Below, one piece after another: positions 9,458-20,662 of a stretch of DNA of 64,000 bases (position 1 is its first letter; each line of letters begins with the position of its first letter). This DNA comes from a virus (taxonomy: Duplodnaviria; Caudoviricetes). The DNA lies in IMG/VR virus record IMGVR_UViG_3300010163_000003, positions 32,001 through 96,000 of that record, one strand, 5' to 3'. Below the pieces are notes generated by a model that was not told the origin of the DNA, did not search any database, and saw only the letters and a program-made list of their open reading frames with translations. Made by a program: the position numbers and the translations under genes.

Positions 9458-10651
9458 ATGTTTGAAATTTCCATTGAGCAATCAGTGTTGGCTAAAGCTA
9501 TAGAGTATTTAGAACCAACTGTAGGTAAGAATACTAAAGGCTTAGGAGATAATTGTATTAGTATGTGTACTACTAACCACAATACTGTCGAATTGTATAC
9601 ACTTAATACAGTTGAATGCACTGCGCTTGAGGCCATTGTATCGTTTAGTTCTGCTCCTAATGAAGTTGCTCCGTATGTAGACTTCAAACGATTCAAGACA
9701 ATAATCTTATCTATTCCTGCTAATGAAATTATATCTATTAAAGAAGGCATTAATAAGATAGACATTTCATTTGGATTAAATAAACGTCCAGTAAGTTTAG
9801 TTGGATGTAATAATGGTATGATACCAAGACCAATGGCTCAGTCTAGTGCTAACGCTAATTGCATTTCTATACCAAAGAATCTTGTACAGCGTACTTTAAC
9901 AAGAGCATGCGCTATTATAACAGATAGCAATTCTGCTCCAATATATAATTGCATTCGTTTTTCTTCTCATATGAATAATATTGAAGCAACTGCTCTTGAT
10001 ATCTCACGTAAGCGTACCTTCGTAGAACACGGTAAAGCTGTATGCAATAATCCTGATGACGAAGTGCTTGTCGAAGCATCTAAACTTAAGAAATCTATGA
10101 AGTTATTTGAAGACTATAACGAAATAGAATTTACCATGGATTGTTCTGTCATACAGCTTAAAGCGGCAGACCCTGTTGCCCAGAATTCTATGAAGACAAA
10201 GGGCATGATAGATAATATCAGATACTTTTGCCAGCGTATCTCAGGTAACTTTCCAAATAATATTGGAAAAAACTTTTCAACATTACCTAATGAATTCATT
10301 GAGCTTAATGTCGATGATATATATAAATGCTTCACCCGCATTAAAGCTATAGAAGACAAGACTAGCGCTGGTGTCATTAATTTTGACGCTAATAACAATG
10401 GTGTTATCATATCTATGAATACAACATGCGGAAATGTAGAGGAAGAAATATCTTCTGTTCAATATACGAATAGTTTATTCAGTGTAAAGTTTAAGTATCC
10501 AGATATTATGGATATCTTAAAGGTAATTGGGACTGGAACATTTGAAATAGGTGTCCTTCCAAAGTACCCTAATAACTATATCGTAAGAGCAACTGGACAA
10601 ACGGATGTCATGTTTACTGTCCCAATCATGGCTGGAGCTAACGCTCCATAA
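9458..10651 (+). CDS. dnaN: DNA polymerase III beta sliding clamp-like protein
   Basis: 397 aa three-domain pattern; ATALDISR, QRISGNFPN (cf. LIDG.FP), terminal VPI; lies next to dnaE. Confidence 0.7.
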   Translation: MFEISIEQSVLAKAIEYLEPTVGKNTKGLGDNCISMCTTNHNTVELYTLNTVECTALEAIVSFSSAPNEVAPYVDFKRFKTIILSIPANEIISIKEGINKIDISFGLNKRPVSLVGCNNGMIPRPMAQSSANANCISIPKNLVQRTLTRACAIITDSNSAPIYNCIRFSSHMNNIEATALDISRKRTFVEHGKAVCNNPDDEVLVEASKLKKSMKLFEDYNEIEFTMDCSVIQLKAADPVAQNSMKTKGMIDNIRYFCQRISGNFPNNIGKNFSTLPNEFIELNVDDIYKCFTRIKAIEDKTSAGVINFDANNNGVIISMNTTCGNVEEEISSVQYTNSLFSVKFKYPDIMDILKVIGTGTFEIGVLPKYPNNYIVRATGQTDVMFTVPIMAGANAP

Positions 10652-10666
10652 CAAATACTATTTACA

Positions 10667-11146
10667 ATGTCAACAAATGCTACGAAAAAGACTATAGTGG
10701 TTTTAGATCCTAGTGGTCTTTTTCTAAGCTTTTGTACTTGGAAGAAAGCATTTAAGTTATTGTGCCGGGGACGGGCCGTTCGCTTGAACGTTAACACCAT
10801 AAAGTTAAACGAAACACCTCAAATGCGGAGACAGCGTAGGCGTAATATCATTCTAAGAGACGGAGACACATGTTACATATGTGGTCAGCGTGTCATTAGA
10901 AAAGGTAATGCAACCATTGACCATGTAGTTCCCAAGTCCAAAAGCAATAAGGCAGACGTATATGGTAATATGAAATGTTGTTGTGATAGATGTAATTCAG
11001 ATAAAGGGAATATGATGCCTTCTGAATACATTAAACATATTCTTGATAATAGAGAACGATATGATTATATATCAGATAAAAGGCTCAAAGATTTATCTCT
11101 GTTGTTTAAAGAATATGAAGAATTATTCACAGAAAAGGAAGAGTAA
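10667..11146 (+). CDS. Free-standing HNH endonuclease
   Basis: RDGDTCYICG, TIDHVVPKS, NMKCCCDRCNSDKG. Confidence 0.88.
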   Translation: MSTNATKKTIVVLDPSGLFLSFCTWKKAFKLLCRGRAVRLNVNTIKLNETPQMRRQRRRNIILRDGDTCYICGQRVIRKGNATIDHVVPKSKSNKADVYGNMKCCCDRCNSDKGNMMPSEYIKHILDNRERYDYISDKRLKDLSLLFKEYEELFTEKEE

Positions 11147-11147
11147 T

Positions 11148-12335
11148 ATGATTGAATATGCTCAACTTCATTGTCATACTAAATATTCTATACAAGATGG
11201 AATGCCATCTCATAAAGATTATGTAGATGCCATTTATAATGCTAATGAAAAGAGTGATAAATATAAATGCGTTGGCTTTGCAGCTACGGATCATGGTGTT
11301 ATCTACGGACTAGCTCAGCAGTATAACGCATGTAATAACCCCGATCATAAAGAACGAATAACTAAAGCTATCTATGGATGTGAAGTATATCACTGTATAG
11401 ATATAAATAATAATCCAAATAAAGATAGGTTCCATCTCGTTCTTCTTGCAAAAAATCAAAAAGGATTAACCAATCTATATCAGATAGTTTCTCATGCAGG
11501 TATGCATCCTATACATGGTAGGTCAAAAGATTTTCCAACTACTGACTTAGAATATATGACTATGCATGGTGAAGGAATCATAGCTCTTACTGCCTGCCTA
11601 GGTGGATTGATACCAAAGTTAATTCAAGCAGGAGATATAACAAAAGCAGAAGGATTTCTTCAATGTATGATGCATATATTTGATGAGGTTTGCTTAGAAG
11701 TACAGCCTCATGATATGCCTGAGCAACTTATGGTTAATCAAACTTTGGTACAGCTATCTAAAAAATATAATCTGAAGTTAGTAATGACTTCTGATAGTCA
11801 CTATATACATGCAAGTGACTCACAGTATCATGACATATTAAAGAACATGTGTCATCAAAAGCCATTCAGTACAAGCAATCATATGTTCTTAGCAGAAGAA
11901 ATGGAACAGTACTGTATTAAAAATAATATTCCATTGGAATGTATATCTAATACTGGATTGATTGCTAAGGAATGTAACGTTGACCCTAAACCTAAAGATA
12001 ATAGAGGATTATTACCTGTATATAAATGTCCTCCAGGGTTTACAGAAGAGACTCTTCTTCGTAAAGTAGCATATGAAGGGCTACAAGAAAAAATGATTAA
12101 GAACAACGTGAGCAATCCCGTAAAATATTTTAAGCAAATGAACTATGAACTTGAAGTAATATGTGGACAAGGATTTGCTAGTTATTTCTTAATCTTATGG
12201 GATTGGTTTCAATGGTGTAGGCAACAAGGCATATTATTAGGCCCAGGACGTGGTAGTGCTGCTGGTAGTATAGTGTCTTATGCATTGAATCTTACGAAAG
12301 TAGACCCAATAAAGAATGAGTTTTATTTTGAGCGT
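11148..12335 (+). CDS. dnaE: DNA polymerase III alpha, exon 1 (PHP domain and start of palm)
   Basis: LHCHTKYS, ATDHG, GCEVY, FHLVLLAKN, TSDSHY, GPGRGSAAGS, ends at FER followed by in-frame TGA at the intron start. Confidence 0.95.
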
Positions 12336-12522
12336 TGAAGAGAGAAGGCGCTCCGAAGCAGGCTATGGCGACCTGTGGACAAAAACTCCGTTAAAAGGGG
12401 AACGAAGCTTTTCAAGCCAATCCCTTACCAAGTCTGTAAAGAAATTTACAGATAGTGTCTAACGACTAGAGTTGAGGCGTTCAGCTAATAATTACTCCAA
12501 GAAAGCGGGGAAACTATAATAC

Positions 12523-12551
12523 TTGACAATATATCTAATAAGTGTTATTAT
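12523..12551 (+). promoter_or_regulatory. SigmaA-type promoter for the intron 1 endonuclease
   Basis: TTGACA-17-TATTAT with TG extension. Confidence 0.75.
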
Positions 12552-12588
12552 TTTGATAGAAATAAGAGACACGAAAGGATTGAGTCAA

Positions 12589-13395
12589 ATGCCATTAAAA
12601 GAAACTTATATTAAACGTGTAAATGGAAAAGAATATTTATGTCATAGAAAATCTTATGAACATCAATGCAAATATTGCAATAAAACTTTTTACAGTCATA
12701 AGAATGTTCAACATTATTGTAGTCGTTCATGTAAATCAAAAGATTATTCATATAAAACTAGAGATAACTTGAACGGGTTCAGTTATAACGATGAATCTTT
12801 CTTTGAAAATAAAATTGATACAGAAAATAAAGCATATGTTCTAGGATTATTTATGGCGGATGGTAGTATTTCTAACAATCAAATATCGATTAGTTTGAAT
12901 GATTTGGATATCATTGAACAAATAAGAGATATGGTAAATCCAAATCGCAAAGTATATCATAATAAAAATTCGCATACCATAGTATGGAGAAATAAAGAAG
13001 ACTTAGACTTCTTAAAATCCATTGGAGTCACCATTAAAAAATCATACGATGCCAGAATATATTTTGGGATACCAAAAGAATTAATGCATCATTATATTCG
13101 TGGATGGTTTGATGGAGATGGTTGCGTATTTCAGAGTAAGACACATGATAAAAAAACTAATAAAGATTATTATTATAATTATGTGTCTTTCACTACTGGC
13201 AGTGTTGATTTCATAAAAGATTTACAAACAGTATTATCTGAAAATGGAATAAGCACAACATATAATGAAGATTGTAGAAAAGCTACATGGTACGTAACTA
13301 TAAAGAAAAAAGGTATGGTACAAAAATTCTTTCAGTATATTTACAAAGATGCTAATATTAAGTTAAATAGAAAGTATTATAAGTTTATGAGATAG
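12589..13395 (+). CDS. Intron-encoded LAGLIDADG homing endonuclease with N-terminal zinc ribbon
   Basis: KAYVLGLFMADG and HYIRGWFDGDG; CKYC...YCSRSC; RBS gaaagga; stop codon lies in the P7 3' strand. Confidence 0.9.
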   Translation: MPLKETYIKRVNGKEYLCHRKSYEHQCKYCNKTFYSHKNVQHYCSRSCKSKDYSYKTRDNLNGFSYNDESFFENKIDTENKAYVLGLFMADGSISNNQISISLNDLDIIEQIRDMVNPNRKVYHNKNSHTIVWRNKEDLDFLKSIGVTIKKSYDARIYFGIPKELMHHYIRGWFDGDGCVFQSKTHDKKTNKDYYYNYVSFTTGSVDFIKDLQTVLSENGISTTYNEDCRKATWYVTIKKKGMVQKFFQYIYKDANIKLNRKYYKFMR

Positions 13396-13483
13396 TCTAA
13401 CCTGGATTGGAATTGACCAATCGATGCAAATGAGTGAGAACTCCAGAGTGCAAGATAAAGAGCTTGCAGCTAATAACAAAATG

Positions 13484-13522
13484 TTTCTTTCTCCTCAACG
13501 AAGAGATTTGCCTGACATTGAT
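13484..13522 (+). CDS. dnaE: dnaE exon 2 (39-nt micro-exon, FLSPQRRDLPDID)
   Basis: Matches the conserved DnaE FLNPER.S.PDID motif; in frame with exons 1 and 3; preceded by intron G and ends in U. Confidence 0.93.
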
Positions 13523-13532
13523 AAATTAAGGG

Positions 13533-13584
13533 TTGCTTAATTTCAAAAGTCATGATATAATTAGCCTATCATTGATACAGATGT
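13533..13584 (+). promoter_or_regulatory. Promoter of the intron 2 endonuclease with an overlapping copy of the exon junction (candidate operator)
   Basis: TTGCTT-17-TATAAT (13533-61) with TG extension; 13560-84 matches ligated exon2/exon3 at 22/25 nt. Confidence 0.75.
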
Positions 13585-13608
13585 CTGTATTATAGAAAGG
13601 TGAATATC

Positions 13609-14496
13609 ATGGCAAAACGTTATGATAAAGAAATTGAAGAAAAAATTGTTGACGCATATAATAGTGGATTGAGTGCATATAAAATTGTAGAAGCAATCCC
13701 TGAATTATATGGCAAGAGACCAAGTGTCATTTACGGTGTGCTTAAAAGATTAGGTATTCAAGTTAGAAGACCTACTATTGTTACTGATGAACAAAAAATT
13801 AAACGTCGTAAGTTTCATGTACAAGATGATTTCTTTTCTGTTATTAATACAGAAGAAAAAGCATATTGGTTAGGATTTATATATGCAGATGGCTATATAA
13901 AAACTAATGCTGATGTTATAGGTATTTCGTTAGCAGAAGCAGACATAAATCATCTTGAAACTTTTAAGCAATCTATAAAGTTTACTGGCAAAGTTAAAAA
14001 ATATGTAGAAACTCAAGGCTATAATGCGGGAGCTACATATGCAAGAATTATAGTAACCAGTAAACAAATGAAAAATGATCTAATAAAACTTGGAGTAAAA
14101 GAAAAGAAAACTAATATATTAACATTTCCTACTGAGGATCAAGTTTCACCTCATCTTTTAAATCATTTCTTAAGAGGATATTTTGATGGTGATGGATGTT
14201 TAACACACCTTAACCAGCGAAAAAGTGGAATATGGGAATGGGCTTTAAAAATAATCGGGACACGCGAAATGTTAGAAGGTTTTCAAAATTTCTTTGGTAA
14301 GCATATAAAATTATATCAACGATTTCCAGAACGCAATGTTAATAACTATAGTTTAGAATACGGTGGAAATCAACAAGTTAAAAAATTCATGGATATGTTA
14401 TATGCTAACGCAACAATTTATCTCAATAGAAAATTCCAAAAATATAAGCAACTTTTGTCGTCCATGGTTGACGCTACAGAAAACCATGGATTATGA
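13609..14496 (+). CDS. Intron-encoded LAGLIDADG homing endonuclease with N-terminal HTH-like segment
   Basis: KAYWLGFIYADG and HFLRGYFDGDG; RBS aaaggtga. Confidence 0.9.
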   Translation: MAKRYDKEIEEKIVDAYNSGLSAYKIVEAIPELYGKRPSVIYGVLKRLGIQVRRPTIVTDEQKIKRRKFHVQDDFFSVINTEEKAYWLGFIYADGYIKTNADVIGISLAEADINHLETFKQSIKFTGKVKKYVETQGYNAGATYARIIVTSKQMKNDLIKLGVKEKKTNILTFPTEDQVSPHLLNHFLRGYFDGDGCLTHLNQRKSGIWEWALKIIGTREMLEGFQNFFGKHIKLYQRFPERNVNNYSLEYGGNQQVKKFMDMLYANATIYLNRKFQKYKQLLSSMVDATENHGL

Positions 14497-14803
14497 ATGC
14501 GGAATTAAGCTGGAACCGAGAGGAACCAGAACCGAAGGCGTAGTTTATAAACTACTAAACCATATAAGTTTTAAACGAAATTGGTAATGTCTGTAATATC
14601 AGACAGTCAGGGGCAACGGGTAGAAGATGAAATAATTCTTCCACGAGACCGCATTAACTTTGTAGCTGAAATAATGAGTTAAAAAGTTACCCTAGCCTGG
14701 GCATGAATTAACATGCCGATAACATAGACTACGAGGAATCTATGAAATGAGGTTATCAAGCCTCCAGAGGATAGGATAAAAAGCCTATCGTTAATAACAA
14801 GCG

Positions 14804-17038
14804 ACAGATGTTCCTCGTGACCGTAGGGCGGAAGCCATTGAATATCTAAAAACTAAGTATGGCGAGGCGAACGTTAGTCAAATAGTAACCTTTGGTGAGT
14901 ATAAAATAAAGAATACTATCAAAGCTATTATGTCTATGCTTGGCTGTAGCTTTCAGGAATCTAATGAAGTTACTAAAAACATACCAGACATTGTAGATGG
15001 CAATGCAGTAACTTATGAACTCATAGAAGATGTAGCATTACATCCTGATAAAGATAAGTATGCTACTATGTCTGAAAGTGATAAAAACAGTCTTGGTAAG
15101 ATATATAATAAACTCAAAGAACTATTTCAAAAGTATCCATTAATATATAGTGGCGTTAAAAATGTTTGTGGATGTCTAGCTAGCACGGGTATTCATGCTG
15201 GTGGTGTAATTATATCCAGCAAACCAATAAATGAAAACGCTGCTATTATTGATGGAGGAGATACAGCGGTACTTCCATTAGTACAGGTAGAGATGACTGA
15301 TTTGGATTTCTTTGGTCTTCTCAAATATGATCTTCTTGGTTTAAAGACTCTTGATGTCATTAAGAAAACCATGGAACTTACTGGTCTTGATTATGACTGG
15401 TATGATTCTGAAGACTTTAGTGATTCTGCTGTATATGATATGTTAAGGAATGGAGAGACTACAGATGTCTTTCAACTCTCTACTTTCACTCCTACCAGTA
15501 TGCTGGTGGATTTTAACGTGCGTGATATTGATGGTATCTGTGCAGTTAATGCCGGAAACAGACCCGGTCCGCTTGAAAAGGATAAGACTAGCGGTAAATC
15601 TATGGTTGACACTCTCGCTGAGCGTACTAGGGTGGGTACTTTTGAAGGATTTCATCCAGATATTGATCCAGTACTTGAGAAGACTATGGGATGTGTCTGG
15701 TATCAAGAACATGTTATTAAGATTGGTCAGATAATGGCTGGATATAATCTCGGTGATGCTGATAGTCGTATTCGTAAAGTATTAGGTAAGAAATTAAAGA
15801 AAAAGATACCTGAAATACGTAATGAATTTATTTATGGTAAAACATCTGTGTATGATGAAGACCATAATGTAATTGGCATTGGTGATTCTCCTTCACCTTA
15901 TTGTGAAGGAAGTCTTGCTAGAGGATATAGCTTAGAACTTTCTGAAAAGATATTTGATATCATGGAAGCCTTCGCTAAGTATTCTTTTAATAGATCCCAT
16001 TCATTTTGTTATGGAGTGTTAGCATATAAGACTGCATGGCTGTCTCTTCATTATCCAGCAGAATTTGCAGTAGCAAACTGTACTATCAATGGAGAAACAG
16101 AAGCTATCACTTCTACTCTTGCTCTTGCAAAACGTCGTAAGATACCTATTCTTCCACCTGATATAAATCATTCACAGATAGGATTCAGCCTTGATAATGG
16201 AGCTATCAGATACGGACTTAAAGCCATTAAAGGTATTGGTAGTTCTGTATTGAACTTCATTGAAAGATATAAAACATTGGACACAGTACCGTTTAAAGAT
16301 TTCGATGATTATTATAATAGGATTCATGACGTAAATAATCCTGTTGTAATACAGTTAATAAATGAAATCAGACAACGTACTGGTAAACAAAGTCCTAATC
16401 CTATGAAGAAGGATGTCGAATTAGCTCTCATATTGTCTGGAGCATTTGATTATTGTGAAAGCAATAGGTACGCTTTGCTTTATCATTATATTGCAGACAT
16501 TCGTAAAGAAAAATCTTGCAAGGTAATGGGCGAAGATATTGATGTTATTGATAAAGATAAATTATCTAAGCAATACAAACGTAAAGTTAAACTTGCTTTA
16601 GAGAAACATTATATGGGTAGTTATATATCTGAACATCCTCTTGACCCATTCCCCTATACTGATTTCGATTCTTGTAAAGAGAATGAGACAATTAAGACTT
16701 CTGGTATTGTTATCAGTGTTTCTTTAAAGCAAACAAAGAAAGGCAGTTCGTTTATATCAATGAGAATTAAGTCTAAAGATGATATAGAAAGAACTGTTAA
16801 TGTGTTTAATGAAAAACAGATTGATTCCATTAAACAAAATGTAAAGAAGAACTCTATTGTGATTGTAACTGGTAAAGTAAGCAAAAAATTTAATAATATT
16901 AATGCTTCTTCTGTGTCGCCTGTCGCATTTAAGAAACAGACTATTGATACAGAACAGCTTGATATCAATGTACAAGATACCAAGCAAGCTCCAGTTATAC
17001 CTCCAGTAGAATCTGTAGGATATGGCAGCATCTTCTGA
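14804..17038 (+). CDS. dnaE: dnaE exon 3 (palm, fingers, HhH, OB); spliced protein 1153 aa
   Basis: TDVPRDRRAEAIEYL in frame with the 14930 ORF; GIHAGGV, KYDLLGL, YSFNRSHS, LPPDINHS, GLKAIKGIG, LEKHYMGSYISEHPL. Confidence 0.95.
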   Translation, partial: TDVPRDRRAEAIEYLKTKYGEANVSQIVTFGEYKIKNTIKAIMSMLGCSFQESNEVTKNIPDIVDGNAVTYELIEDVALHPDKDKYATMSESDKNSLGKIYNKLKELFQKYPLIYSGVKNVCGCLASTGIHAGGVIISSKPINENAAIIDGGDTAVLPLVQVEMTDLDFFGLLKYDLLGLKTLDVIKKTMELTGLDYDWYDSEDFSDSAVYDMLRNGETTDVFQLSTFTPTSMLVDFNVRDIDGICAVNAGNRPGPLEKDKTSGKSMVDTLAERTRVGTFEGFHPDIDPVLEKTMGCVWYQEHVIKIGQIMAGYNLGDADSRIRKVLGKKLKKKIPEIRNEFIYGKTSVYDEDHNVIGIGDSPSPYCEGSLARGYSLELSEKIFDIMEAFAKYSFNRSHSFCYGVLAYKTAWLSLHYPAEFAVANCTINGETEAITSTLALAKRRKIPILPPDINHSQIGFSLDNGAIRYGLKAIKGIGSSVLNFIERYKTLDTVPFKDFDDYYNRIHDVNNPVVIQLINEIRQRTGKQSPNPMKKDVELALILSGAFDYCESNRYALLYHYIADIRKEKSCKVMGEDIDVIDKDKLSKQYKRKVKLALEKHYMGSYISEHPLDPFPYTDFDSCKENETIKTSGIVISVSLKQTKKGSSFISMRIKSKDDIERTVNVFNEKQIDSIKQNVKKNSIVIVTGKVSKKFNNINASSVSPVAFKKQTIDTEQLDINVQDTKQAPVIPPVESVGYGSIF

Positions 17039-17081
17039 TATGTAACTTAACATTGCACCCTCGCCTAAAATATTGTATAAT
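17038..17081 (+). promoter_or_regulatory. SigmaA-type promoter of the ssb-recA-uvrD operon with an overlapping 20-bp motif
   Basis: TTGCAC-17-TATAAT (17053-81); atatgtaacttaacattgca at 17038-57 recurs at 23864. Confidence 0.7.
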
Positions 17082-17107
17082 ATTAATATAAAGGAGTGGG
17101 TGCAATT

Positions 17108-17353
17108 ATGCTTAGTGATGAAGTAATGAATTATATGTTGGCTAAAGCATATAGAGACTCTATAGCAAAGACTAAGCCACCTGTTGTTAAGCGAGACATA
17201 TCAGAAGAAGAAGCCTTACAGATATTTAATGAAATAGTAGAGTTATACAAATCACATAATGTGTCTTATCAGTGTGCTTGTAGGCTTACTATGGCATTGA
17301 ATCATGCATTTCTAACTGGCGCTGTAGAGTTATACGAACGTGAAATGAACTAG
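17108..17353 (+). CDS. Small hypothetical protein
   Basis: ORF directly after the promoter and aaggag RBS. Confidence 0.65.
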   Translation: MLSDEVMNYMLAKAYRDSIAKTKPPVVKRDISEEEALQIFNEIVELYKSHNVSYQCACRLTMALNHAFLTGAVELYEREMN

Positions 17354-17400: not shown

Positions 17401-17946
17401 ATGATTGGTACAAATAATGTTTGTATGTTCCAAGGTCGTATCACAAAAGATCCAATATATTCTTCGTATACATGCCAAGGACAGCAAGGTCCATACCAGT
17501 TGGATAAAGCGTTATTTACTATTGCAGTGGACCGTCCGCTATCTTCAGACCAGCGCCAAAAGGCAAGGAATGGAGATAAAAGCATTAAGACCGCAGACTT
17601 TGTTCCTGTTTCATTGACAGGATCGCAAGTAGCTACGTTGAAACAATACTTCTTTAAAGGCAAAGGAATTACTGTCCTTGGGCATTATGAAGAATATGTT
17701 ACAAAAGACCCAAATACTGGTGAAAATAAATACGGACATACAATTGTCGCTGAAAGGATAGGCTTCACTGTGCAAGATCCAAAGAACGCACAACAAGGTC
17801 AGCCTCAGCAACAACAGTATCAGCAACCACAACAGCAATATCAGCAACCGCAGGCACAGTATCAACAGCCACAGCAGCCTCAGTTTGGAACACCGCCTCA
17901 GCAAACAAACTTTAGCATGTTTGATGAATCCAATTCTCCGTTTTAA
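17401..17946 (+). CDS. ssb: Single-stranded DNA-binding protein
   Basis: GRITKDP, FTIAVDR, TADFVP, KGKGITVLG; Q/P-rich linker; acidic tail ending PF. Confidence 0.92.
   Translation: MIGTNNVCMFQGRITKDPIYSSYTCQGQQGPYQLDKALFTIAVDRPLSSDQRQKARNGDKSIKTADFVPVSLTGSQVATLKQYFFKGKGITVLGHYEEYVTKDPNTGENKYGHTIVAERIGFTVQDPKNAQQGQPQQQQYQQPQQQYQQPQAQYQQPQQPQFGTPPQQTNFSMFDESNSPF
17799..17900 (+). repeat. Imperfect tandem repeat encoding (QQQYQQP)n in the SSB linker
   Basis: cagcaacaacagtat/cagcaaccacaacagcaatat/cagcaaccgcaggcacagtat units. Confidence 0.7.
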
Positions 17947-17958
17947 GGAGGTATAACA

Positions 17959-18321
17959 ATGGAAAGTAGTAAGGCCGCTGGAGCTAAGGAAGCAGTAAGT
18001 ACAATGATGTTTTACTATTTGTCATCTCTTATAGGTACACAAGAAGATCCTAAACAATATATAGCTGGCGAACTTGGAAACATGATTGGGCTGACAGAAG
18101 ATCAAATAGCTTATGTACGTTCAACGATCAATACTGACAATAAAATTATCAGCAGTCTTCAGACTTCCATTGATTTATTAAATAACATGTTAGAGTCTAA
18201 AAAAATAGACATAGACTCTATGAATATTGTTATTGAAATCATGAAAACATTAAAGGCAGAGTGTACAAAAGCTATTACTAAATATATAGGTGAAGAGTCT
18301 GATGACATGGAGGAATCATGA
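17959..18321 (+). CDS. Hypothetical protein
   Basis: 120 aa, RBS aaggaggt. Confidence 0.7.
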   Translation: MESSKAAGAKEAVSTMMFYYLSSLIGTQEDPKQYIAGELGNMIGLTEDQIAYVRSTINTDNKIISSLQTSIDLLNNMLESKKIDIDSMNIVIEIMKTLKAECTKAITKYIGEESDDMEES

Positions 18322-19487
18322 ATCCAAATAAAAAGAAAAACTTAATGAAAACTATTGAAGGTATCAATAAACAATTTGGAGCTGATACAGTTATGACTGC
18401 TGCTAATGCAATGGCGGCAGGCAAACTTACTAAAAAAAGAATCAAGACTCCATCATTAGAGTTTAATGATATGCTTCATGGAGGTTTCGCAAGTATCGTT
18501 GAATTATTTGGACCTACTGGTTCAGGTAAAACTTCACTTGCTATTGAAACCATTGCCTTAGCACAAAAAGAAGACCCCGATTTTATTGCCGCTTGGTTAG
18601 AAACAGAGGGGTCAGTTACCGCAGAAATTCTTGCCGCTCATGGTATAGATATGGAGCGTTTAGTATTTTGGAGGCAAGAAGATGTGGGCAATGCCGAAAA
18701 CGCTCTCGATATCGCTAGGGGCTTTATTAACGGTGGCGATATTGATCTTATGGTTGTTAACTCTATCGCAGGATTAGCTCCAAAGGTAGAGACGGAAGAT
18801 GACTTAGAGAAACAAAACATAGCTCTTACTGCTCGTTTGTTATCTAAGTTCTTTAGAGTTGCCACAAGTGCAGCATCTAAGAATGATATTGTTCTTCTGT
18901 TTATCAATCAGATACGCGATAATGTTGGCGTTATGTATGGAGACCCTACAACTACTCCTGGAGGTAAAGCTCTTGGATTCTTTGCAAGTCAACGTATCCG
19001 TATGAGTAAAGTTAAGCTCCAAAAGAGCGACCCGATATCCGAACAAGATGGATTAAAGATATCCTGTTCGACGTACAAGAATAGGTTTGCTAACGGAGAG
19101 AATCCTTACACTAAATGTACCTATTATGCAACTTATGCTAATGGTATAGATTCTATTGTAGCTATTCCTCAATTGCTTCTTAACGCAAAGATAGTACGTC
19201 AAGCTGGTGCATGGTGGTATTATGAAAATGAAAACGGTGAACCGATCACCTTCAATGGAGCGGTTTGTAAATGGAGAAGTCATTCTGCTTTTATTGATGC
19301 TCTCAGAAGCGATAAACAGTTGACTCAAATGTTTATCAATAAACTCAATGGTCAATTGGCAGAAGATCAAAGCGCTGAAGAAGAAGCAGAGGCTAAACAA
19401 ATGCAATCAAGAATCAATCAAGAAGGTGATGCTATGGAACGAAGCATCGAAACAGATGAAATAAATACTGTTCTTACAGAAAATTAA
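18318..19487 (+). CDS. recA: RecA/UvsX recombinase
   Basis: IVELFGPTGSGKTS, VVNSIAGL, FINQIRDNVGVMYGDPTTTPGGKALGFFAS, AGAWWYY. Confidence 0.95.
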   Translation: MNPNKKKNLMKTIEGINKQFGADTVMTAANAMAAGKLTKKRIKTPSLEFNDMLHGGFASIVELFGPTGSGKTSLAIETIALAQKEDPDFIAAWLETEGSVTAEILAAHGIDMERLVFWRQEDVGNAENALDIARGFINGGDIDLMVVNSIAGLAPKVETEDDLEKQNIALTARLLSKFFRVATSAASKNDIVLLFINQIRDNVGVMYGDPTTTPGGKALGFFASQRIRMSKVKLQKSDPISEQDGLKISCSTYKNRFANGENPYTKCTYYATYANGIDSIVAIPQLLLNAKIVRQAGAWWYYENENGEPITFNGAVCKWRSHSAFIDALRSDKQLTQMFINKLNGQLAEDQSAEEEAEAKQMQSRINQEGDAMERSIETDEINTVLTEN

Positions 19488-19512: not shown

Positions 19513-20238
19513 GTGCCTACTAATCTTAGTATGCTCAATGAGCAGCAGAGGGCTGCTGTACTGGAAAGTGTTAACCATAATGTAGTTCTCCTAGCTGGAG
19601 CTGGCTCAGGGAAAACTTCTACGCTCATTAAAAGGACTCAGTATCTTATTGATGATCTTGGTGTGAGTCCTGAAAACATTATGATGATTACGTTTACCAA
19701 CAAGGCTGCGAATGAAATTAAAAGCCGTGTTGCAAACGTATCAAAGGACTATTATAAAATGTGGATTGGAACATTCCATCACATTTGTTGCCGTATAATG
19801 CGTATGTTTGGTAGCAAACTTGGTATCGAGAATTTTACTATTCTCGATACCAAAGATGCTAAAAACATTATTAAAGAAATCCTTACTTCTCGTAGTATAG
19901 ACGCTAGCCGTTATGTCATTAATGGTATGGCGGCTAAAATTTCTAAGTTTAAGAATGATTTAGTTAGACCAGCTAAGGTATTATCCGATGGCAAAGAAGA
20001 TAAACTCATAGCAGATGTATATCAAGAATACCAGAATATCTGCTGGAGGAAAAAATGTTTTGATTTCGATGATCTTATTATATATGCCATCCTTCTTCTT
20101 AACTCTTACTCTGATGTTGCTGACTGGATTCATAACACTATTAAGTATCTCATGGTTGATGAGACTCAAGATACAAACAGTGCTCAATTCACCCTCATTA
20201 ACCTTATTAGTGGCAATAACAATGTTATGTGCGTCGGT
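19513..20238 (+). CDS. uvrD: UvrD/PcrA SF1 helicase, exon 1
   Basis: LNEQQ, AGAGSGKT, ITFTNKAA, GTFH, VDETQDTN, ends at VG of motif III. Confidence 0.93.
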
Positions 20239-20633
20239 AAATAACATTGCTGACGTTAAACCGTACTAATTGCGGGAAAGTCGTATATTATATAGATACC
20301 GCTTTATGTTGGAAACAACATAAGTAAGCAGATAAGTTAACTCTTATTGGATGGTAATAAGTCTATATAAATGACAATCACATCAAAACGCAGCCAGGTT
20401 CCCTAACGTAAAGGCGAGGGAGCAAGGTTCATCGACTAGGGAAAGCTATAGACGCTGAAATACGCGGTGAAAATAAGGTAGAGTAACATCTACACGAAGC
20501 AAGTAGACGTAGTGCCATTTTTGCATGGTTGGTCTTAAGTAATAACCCATTTAAGGGAAGTAGCTTAATATAAAATCCATTAAAACGAAATGAGCGGCGG
20601 CTAAATAGCCGAAGATATAGTCAGTTTAAACTA

Positions 20634-20662
20634 TTGCAATATCTAAAACTATATGATATAAT
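20634..20662 (+). promoter_or_regulatory. SigmaA-type promoter for the intron 3 endonuclease
   Basis: TTGCAA-17-TATAAT with TG extension. Confidence 0.75.

Follow-up and report, generated by a model that had tools for sequence, protein, structure and literature searches.

Phage introns favor conserved sites in polymerases, reductases, and terminases (PMC3984707; PMC12350094). The T4 genes td, a nucleotide-synthesis gene, and sunY, a phage gene, each harbor one mobile group I intron with a homing endonuclease gene, encoding I-TevI and I-TevII, respectively, which lies in a peripheral loop and whose frame extends into ribozyme elements. In the Bacillus phages SPO1, SP82, and Bastille, single group I introns encoding HNH nicking endonucleases (I-HmuI, I-BasI) occupy a conserved site of a replicative family A polymerase gene (PMC2814812; PMC3984707), and in AR9/PBS1 the topoisomerase II (gyrA-like) gene (NC_031039, gp044), annotated as a three-part join, contains two introns of 354 and ~355 nucleotides (nt) on either side of a 99-nt exon encoding a conserved motif. 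Here, we describe dnaE, the family C replicative polymerase gene of a virus represented by a 218,431-bp IMG/VR record with direct terminal repeats, of which bases 32001-96000 form the analyzed stretch of 64,000 nt (the window). Our reading, to which we assign a probability of about 0.9, is that two related mobile group I introns have invaded this gene, at sites separated by 39 nt, and the locus is a real, tidy case of a layout that recurs in other phages.

With the T4 introns, those of the window share the peripheral-loop position of the endonuclease genes and their extension into the ribozyme, but two introns occupy one gene and the endonucleases are of the LAGLIDADG type rather than GIY-YIG (I-TevI) or HNH-type. 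The SPO1, SP82, and Bastille introns likewise combine a group I ribozyme with a homing endonuclease in a phage replicative polymerase, differing in the polymerase family, the HNH nicking enzymes, and the single intron. The AR9/PBS1 introns belong to the same family as those of the window, with the same P3, P7, P8, P9, and 3′ tail, and also interrupt one replication gene twice around a short exon; however, they lack open reading frames (ORFs) and reside in a topoisomerase gene, whereas the window introns lie in dnaE, carry LAGLIDADG genes (HE1 in intron 1, HE2 in intron 2), and are separated by a 39-nt exon.

Excision of both insertions (coordinates in Table 1) joins exon 1, the micro-exon, and exon 3 into 3462 nt encoding 1153 amino acids (aa) with a single terminal stop, in agreement with a sequence-only reading of this DNA that had proposed the same excision. 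That reading had suggested alignment to uninterrupted relatives as a check, and two IMG/VR phages of 210–213 kb, L004 and L111, provide it. The L004 protein (L004:4768-8241) is 58.6% identical to the spliced product over 1148 aligned residues, with 57% identity in exon 3, and that of L111 (L111:6001-9459) is 70% identical across exon 1. Neither comparison shows a gap at either junction, FER/FLSPQRRDLPDID/TDVPRD aligning against FERFLNPGRLSFPDIDTDIPRS (a slash within a protein motif marks an insertion point throughout). Because the intron-less relatives are collinear at the junctions, the insertions were gained or lost within one lineage, in keeping with mobile elements. The exons also complement one another at the domain level: exon 1 covers positions 2-92 of Pfam DNA_pol3_alpha, exon 3 covers 107-260, and the micro-exon fills the 14 missing positions, 93-106. 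Matches of exon 1 to Pol III alpha in the PDB stop at E. coli residue 390 and Taq residue 452, and the micro-exon aligns to FLNPGRLSFPDID of L004 and to Taq 453-465. The order PHP, palm, fingers, and HhH is present across the exons (Pfam), with a PDB match to Pol III alpha at E 1e-48. Both 5′ exons finish in U and both introns in G (G13483 and G14803), as had been noticed before, and the terminal G lies 6 nt (intron 1) or 5 nt (intron 2) past a conserved AAUAAC, as elsewhere in the intron family.

The catalytic residues of Pol III alpha, which we take to be Taq D463, D465, and D618 (E. coli D401, D403, and D555), can be located in the spliced protein. Through the L004 protein, the PDID of the micro-exon aligns to Taq 462-465, placing D407 and D409 opposite Taq 463 and 465, both inside the micro-exon. 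The third aspartate, D585, lies in exon 3 within KYDLLG, which resembles the KFDFLG motif, and all three catalytic aspartates of a family C polymerase are present. The sequence-only reading had put intron 2 between the two catalytic aspartates of the micro-exon motif; the Taq alignment corrects this, as intron 2 directly follows the second of them, D409. Since the micro-exon supplies two of the three, both introns must be correctly removed for an active polymerase, which upholds the idea that no polymerase could be made without splicing. Direct joining of exon 1 to exon 3 keeps the reading frame, as had also been predicted. P10 fidelity might be essential in this setting, and splicing could conceivably gate replication.

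Gene callers would render this locus as fragments, the exon 1 frame ends at an in-frame TGA immediately 3′ of the exon, and exon 3 has an internal ATG at 14930, all of which would also fit a dead dnaE, broken by endonuclease cassettes in a phage that uses the host replicase. We consider such a loss very improbable in view of the exact in-frame restoration at both junctions, the lack of any frameshift or stop in 3.4 kb of exons, the 59–70% identity to intact relatives, and the intact ribozyme cores described below. Moreover, dnaE belongs to a replication module that also includes clamp, SSB, and recombinase genes, and the 218-kb genome yielded neither a second dnaE nor any polymerase domain of family A or B, which leaves dnaE as the only recognizable DNA polymerase of the phage. 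Separate translation of the pieces, or their joining as proteins by inteins or split inteins as in cyanobacterial DnaE, would recall that DnaE is a classic intein host and that LAGLIDADG domains occur in inteins too (PMC4853749). We give this practically no credence: a stop codon immediately follows exon 1 and another comes six codons past the micro-exon, neither endonuclease frame is fused to an exon, and the micro-exon lacks both a start codon and a ribosome-binding site. In the two intron ORFs, Pfam shows LAGLIDADG-type domains alone and no intein splicing domain, and neither the in-frame insertion nor the splicing blocks of an intein were found.

Covarying structure identifies both insertions as group I introns. 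Queried by blastn, the 3′-terminal 307 nt of intron 2 matched both AR9/PBS1 topoisomerase II introns, at 80–82% identity over parts of the core, and a terminase intron of a Clostridium perfringens phage, and a 35-nt pattern taken from the shared 3′ end recovered at least 103 IMG/VR stretches among the matches listed. From an alignment of 92 non-identical members, including both window introns (intron 1 without its ORF), RNAalifold predicted P7, P7.1, P8, a three-way P9 domain, and P9.2. Standard pairs across the 92 sequences amount to 95.8% in P7, 97.0% in P7.1, 86.7% in P8, 98.0% in P9a, 99.7% in P9b, and 100% in P9.2, with several pair types at most helix positions and three pair types at two positions of P7. 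In P3, which was named from intron 2 and is located where the alignment is poorer, 71% of the pairs are standard and individual positions display up to 6 pair types. Both window introns retain the pairs of the covarying helices P3, P7, P7.1, P8, P9, and P9.2, which bears out the proposal of two group I introns around a 39-nt active-site micro-exon. P7 illustrates the covariation, reading GACUA/UAGUC in intron 1, GGGUA/UACCC in intron 2, GCAUA/UAUGC in AR9, and GCGUA/UACGC in the Clostridium phage intron. In both introns the core elements follow the order P3, P4-P6, P7, P7.1, P3′, P8, P7′, P9, that is, the topology of the P3-P8 pseudoknot. Across the genome, only the two dnaE introns have the 3′ motif of the family, and no paralogous introns were found.

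Intron 1 has the P1 and P10 that had been ascribed to it: P1 comprises 6 bp and includes the U.G pair, and in P10, nine P1-loop bases adjoining the guide sequence form 9 bp with the 5′ end of the micro-exon. P2 to P7 then come within 135 nt, every named helix consists of standard pairs, and the minimum-energy fold reproduces P1, P3, P4, P5, and P6. In intron 2, alignment with the AR9 introns, whose exons are annotated as a join, places the predicted guide at the conserved place of the family, immediately 5′ of P2. Guide and exon co-vary, GUCG accompanying the exon end GAU in intron 2 and GCCG accompanying GGU in AR9; the putative P1 draws on this co-variation and on positional homology, not on statistics. 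From P3 onward, the core runs without interruption to the 3′ end (14497-14803), starting right after the HE2 stop codon. Other assignments were considered and rejected for intron 2. Two guide candidates upstream of the ORF, the hairpin 13523-13543 and a GUUG at 13532-13535, would lack the U.G pair or offer just 3-4 weak pairs; the 3′ arm of a 10-bp helix, 13535-13544/14501-14510, is a conserved P3/J3/4 segment common to AR9; and comparison with AR9 ruled out a P7 at GACUA near 14726-14730.

Several observations weigh against our reading. Splicing is read here from the genome sequence of an uncultivated IMG/VR virus rather than from RNA. The group I model search proposed by the sequence-only reading was negative, Rfam RF00028 (Intron_gpI) matching neither intron in 12000-15200, whether the cutoff was the gathering score or an E value of 10, and a whole-genome search with this model likewise misses both; given the covariation, we read this as a limit of model coverage. 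The P1 of intron 2 contains 4 bp, two of them wobble pairs, at ~935 nt from the splice site, and such a pairing presumably has some 20 chance matches in 1281 nt, by rough estimate rather than computation. No convincing P10 candidate was found for intron 2, its P4-P6 were assigned by eye where the family alignment is poor, and the promoter-like sites described below come from a scan without overall enrichment (38 sites versus 33.7 in shuffled sequence). A P1 this short, which must form over a ~935-nt loop, and the lack of a clear P10 would suit a dependence of one or both introns on a protein helper, either the intron's own LAGLIDADG maturase or a host chaperone, that would limit DnaE output; LAGLIDADG maturases and chaperone-assisted splicing are known in bacterial and phage introns (PMC3984707). 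Nevertheless, we regard this dependence as unlikely, as all covarying core helices are intact in both introns and ORF-less members at the same dnaE site (L014, L060, and L069) must splice without an intron-encoded protein.

Both endonuclease genes are intact. HE1 matches Pfam LAGLIDADG_3 (PF14528) in two stretches (E 4.8e-18) and the endonuclease family PHROG 4645, and HE2 matches the same Pfam family and PHROG 4645 (E 1.4e-61). Their motifs are intact and retain the acidic residues, ...LFMADGS and ...WFDGDGC in HE1 and ...FIYADGY and ...YFDGDGC in HE2, and the two proteins are 28% identical. HE2 has more than 6000 homologues, the closest at 52–59% identity and several on ~200-kb contigs, and its relatives in IMG/VR reach 42% identity at most. 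The 3′ end of HE1 encodes the 3′ strand of P8 and J8/7, and the P7 3′ strand opens with the 3 bases of the HE1 TAG stop. Within the HE2 frame, the final 40 nt encode the internal guide sequence (IGS) and P2, which puts HE2 in the P1 loop, and its stop abuts P3.

Under the reading of a doubly invaded dnaE, the primary transcript would contain two independent ribozymes, each promoting guanosine attack at the P1 U.G pair and then exon ligation at the terminal G, such that exon 1, the micro-exon, and exon 3 would be joined to encode the 1153-aa DnaE. The LAGLIDADG enzymes presumably cut intron-less dnaE alleles of co-infecting relatives, and repair of the break would spread the intron. Because the endonuclease frames overlap ribozyme elements (P8, J8/7, and P7 for HE1; the guide and P2 for HE2), their translation on the precursor may compete with the folding of their own ribozyme. 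Leader hairpins could hide the ribosome-binding site and start codon in read-through RNA, and promoter-like sites within them would separate endonuclease expression from splicing. The HE2 leader hairpin has a predicted energy of -26.3 kcal/mol (z-score -6.18), a stability reached by none of 200 shuffles, and an RNA starting near 13568 would lack its 5′ arm, leaving the HE2 Shine-Dalgarno sequence and AUG free. The HE1 leader (12523-12588) would form a weak hairpin over the Shine-Dalgarno sequence in read-through RNA (z-score -2.86) and may be a weaker version of the HE2 design; its promoter-like site, a consensus match only, scores 11/12, the best in 10500-17300. This design, known here from sequence alone, can be likened to that of T4 I-TevI, which combines a leader hairpin with an internal promoter. 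Gibb and Edgell reportedly found in 2010 that delayed translation of I-TevI is needed for splicing. Here, an in-frame stop lies shortly past the 5′ exon, a feature that is regarded as helping introns to fold (PMC3984707).

Intron 2 also contains, upstream of HE2, a copy of the ligated exon 2/exon 3 junction that matches at 22 of 25 nt, including 15 consecutive ones spanning the junction, a score that 0 of 300 shuffles reach. The HE2 leader hairpin has this copy at its core, and the -10 box and predicted start of the HE2 promoter-like site overlap it; read in the exon frame, the copy gives PIIDTD, in which the first catalytic aspartate is gone. Six other dnaE introns contain no significant comparable copy. 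In L115 and AR9 intron 1, leader or P1-loop hairpins look similar to parts of the window copy (CCUAUCA...UGAUA). The GIY-YIG enzyme I-TevI binds a decoy of its homing site and thereby represses the gene that encodes it, and HE2 might similarly bind the junction copy and repress its own gene, although we find this doubtful; to our knowledge, such autorepression is undescribed for any LAGLIDADG enzyme. Alternatively, the copy might be left over from an earlier insertion 8 nt downstream, might be a cryptic 5′ splice site made harmless by the hairpin, or might be a footprint of endonuclease-gene invasion as conceived by Loizos et al., where the site, in the account given in PMC3984707, is split by the ORF. 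The same account describes a sequence in the T4 sunY intron that is similar to its exon junction (PMC3984707); the sunY sequence is split by the ORF, whereas the window copy is intact and lies upstream of it.

Table 1. Features of the interrupted dnaE locus in window coordinates, followed by insertion sites in phage dnaE genes
Feature	Position or phage	Strand	Remarks
dnaE exon 1	11148-12335	+	396 aa; PHP domain (Pfam PHP) and palm start; ends ...YFER
Group I intron 1	12336-13483	+	1148 nt; terminal G 13483
Intron 1 P1	12330-12335/12348-12353		6 bp, GAGCGU/GCGCUC; 3′ strand is the IGS; U12335.G12348 pair
Intron 1 P10	12339-12347/13484-13492		9 bp
Intron 1 P2	12359-12362/12372-12375
Intron 1 P3	12386-12391/12505-12510
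Intron 1 P4	12396-12400/12421-12425
Intron 1 P5	12407-12410/12414-12417
Intron 1 P6	12433-12440/12445-12452
Intron 1 P7	12464-12468/13393-13397
Intron 1 P8	12511-12524/13372-13386		14-bp stem, one bulge
Intron 1 P9 domain	13402-13468
Promoter-like site	12523-12551	+	TTGACA, 17 nt, TG-extended TATTAT; in P8 loop, upstream of HE1
HE1, LAGLIDADG homing endonuclease gene	12589-13395	+	268 aa; P8 loop of intron 1
Micro-exon	13484-13522	+	39 nt, 13 aa, FLSPQRRDLPDID; bears catalytic D407 and D409
Group I intron 2	13523-14803	+	1281 nt; terminal G 14803
Promoter-like site	13533-13561	+	TTGCTT-17-TATAAT; -10 box in 5′ arm of HE2 leader hairpin
HE2 leader hairpin	13549-13613	+	pairs both Shine-Dalgarno sequence and AUG
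Copy of ligated exon 2/exon 3 junction	13560-13584	+	inside intron 2, upstream of HE2
HE2, LAGLIDADG homing endonuclease gene	13609-14496	+	295 aa; P1 loop of intron 2
Intron 2 P1 (putative)	13519-13522/14457-14460		exon UGAU with IGS GUCG, 4 bp; U13522.G14457
Intron 2 P2	14461-14469/14482-14490		9 bp
Intron 2 P3	14497-14502/14649-14654
Intron 2 P4	14510-14513/14526-14529
Intron 2 P7	14618-14622/14688-14692
Intron 2 P7.1	14623-14627/14637-14641
Intron 2 P8	14655-14659/14685-14689
Intron 2 P9	14697-14699/14765-14767		hairpins 14700-14717, 14723-14744 (insertion), 14749-14764
Intron 2 P9.2	14770-14775/14784-14789
dnaE exon 3	14804-17038	+	744 aa; palm remainder, fingers, HhH; starts TDVPRD; DNA_pol3_finger and HHH_6
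Sliding-clamp gene	9458-10651		flanks the dnaE region
HNH endonuclease gene, free-standing	10667-11146	+	between sliding-clamp gene and dnaE; Pfam HNH_5/HNH; PHROG HNH families
SSB gene	17401-17946		downstream neighbor of dnaE
UvsX-like recombinase gene	18318-19487		downstream neighbor of dnaE
Site FER/FL (intron 1 site)	L014, L060, L069		ORF-less, ~360 nt; same family, same exon sequence TTTGAGCGT
Site FER/FL (intron 1 site)	L075, L080, L079		LAGLIDADG gene in P8 loop
Site PD/xD	L084, L110, L074, L058, L079, L115, L117, L119, L120, L132, others		T4 td-like ribozyme
Site FP/DID	GenBank phage S4-2
Site PDID/TD (intron 2 site)	this window only		intron 2
Site PDVDTD/F	GenBank phage vB_BceM_WH1		dnaE annotated as three CDSs (coding sequences)

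The stop of the free-standing HNH gene and the dnaE start are 1 base apart. A homologue of this gene, 51% identical, occupies the same position in the intron-less L111 and is absent from L004; its presence at the same place in an intron-less relative marks it as a resident of the lineage, unconnected with the introns. A megablast search with the whole locus against GenBank phages gave no match. Elsewhere in the genome, RF00028 matches C1:4065-4401 (52.3 bits) and C1:117324-117523 (10.9 bits), both outside the window, and window positions 20229-20646 (18.5 bits); these three matches point to further, putative group I introns of other families.

Many interrupted dnaE genes came to light in other phages when an intron-less DnaE was compared by tblastn with loci that had been fetched for unrelated purposes. 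No fewer than five intron sites lie within 17 codons of the PDxD motif (Table 1), and the PD/xD introns truly lie between the two catalytic aspartates. An HE2-like gene near the 5′ end characterizes the PD/xD introns of L115, L117, L119, L120, and L132, which were fetched via the HE2 search; that of L084, at 371 nt, is too short for one. L084, L110, L074, L058, and L079 have twin dnaE introns, at the FER/FL and PD/xD sites, around a 33-nt micro-exon encoding FLNPERVSMPD. The sequence-only reading had called two introns 39 nt apart in a family C polymerase gene rare, which was an overstatement, with five IMG/VR contigs showing the same layout and many further phage dnaE genes bearing a single intron within these 17 codons. 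Among GenBank phages searched by tblastn, 1203 of the 1344 records with a DnaE match have at least 80% of a 160-aa segment uninterrupted, so that interruption over this segment is the exception there. Within the library searched, no paper was found that deals with dnaE group I introns or with phage micro-exons flanked by such introns.

The closest parallel in position comes from an IMG/VR lineage of ~100 kb (L014, L060, L075, L080, L084, L110, L074, L058, and L079), in which an intron of the same family, with P7 GACUA/UAGUC as in intron 1, occupies the same site, FER/FL after ...TTTGAGCGT. Some of these introns have a P8-loop LAGLIDADG gene, 28% identical to HE1. The lineage differs in its DnaE, just ~28% identical to that of L004, and in its second intron, which is T4 td-like and inserted two codons upstream (PD/LD). 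Within it, near-identical dnaE exons occur in four intron states: the FER/FL intron without an ORF, with a LAGLIDADG ORF, with the second intron added, or with both. Two GenBank phages have group I-like insertions in the same catalytic-motif stretch, of other ribozyme families and at other sites. In vB_BceM_WH1 (L007, LC597490.1, 194353-198551), dnaE is annotated as gp235-237, separate CDSs around two unannotated group I-like introns, one after PDVDTD and the second further downstream. In S4-2 (L113, PQ069204.1, an unannotated record), the insertion lies between KFP and DIDTD, with an ORF that appears HNH-like by eye. At L175:3374-4501, dnaE is interrupted after ...GSP by a sequence that stays in frame for ~30 codons up to a stop, and then resumes at DIDVDF; this may be an intron with a read-through extension, or something else.

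Family C replicative polymerases thus join the well-described phage hosts of mobile group I introns. Around the DnaE PDxD motif, a stretch of 17 codons constitutes a multi-site landing pad: in unrelated phage lineages, its five insertion sites have taken up ribozymes of at least two families as well as LAGLIDADG and HNH-like endonuclease genes, and presence/absence polymorphism occurs naturally. For annotation, gene callers fragment such genes and lose the micro-exon, as exemplified by vB_BceM_WH1, and since this intron family escapes RF00028, a covariance model made for it would allow many phage genes to be recovered. The intron polymorphism of the ~100-kb lineage is suited to homing studies. 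The locus itself offers a compact system for studying how two ribozymes share a 39-nt exon, how a guide-containing endonuclease frame is kept from blocking splicing, and whether intron endonucleases mediate competition among co-infecting jumbo phages.

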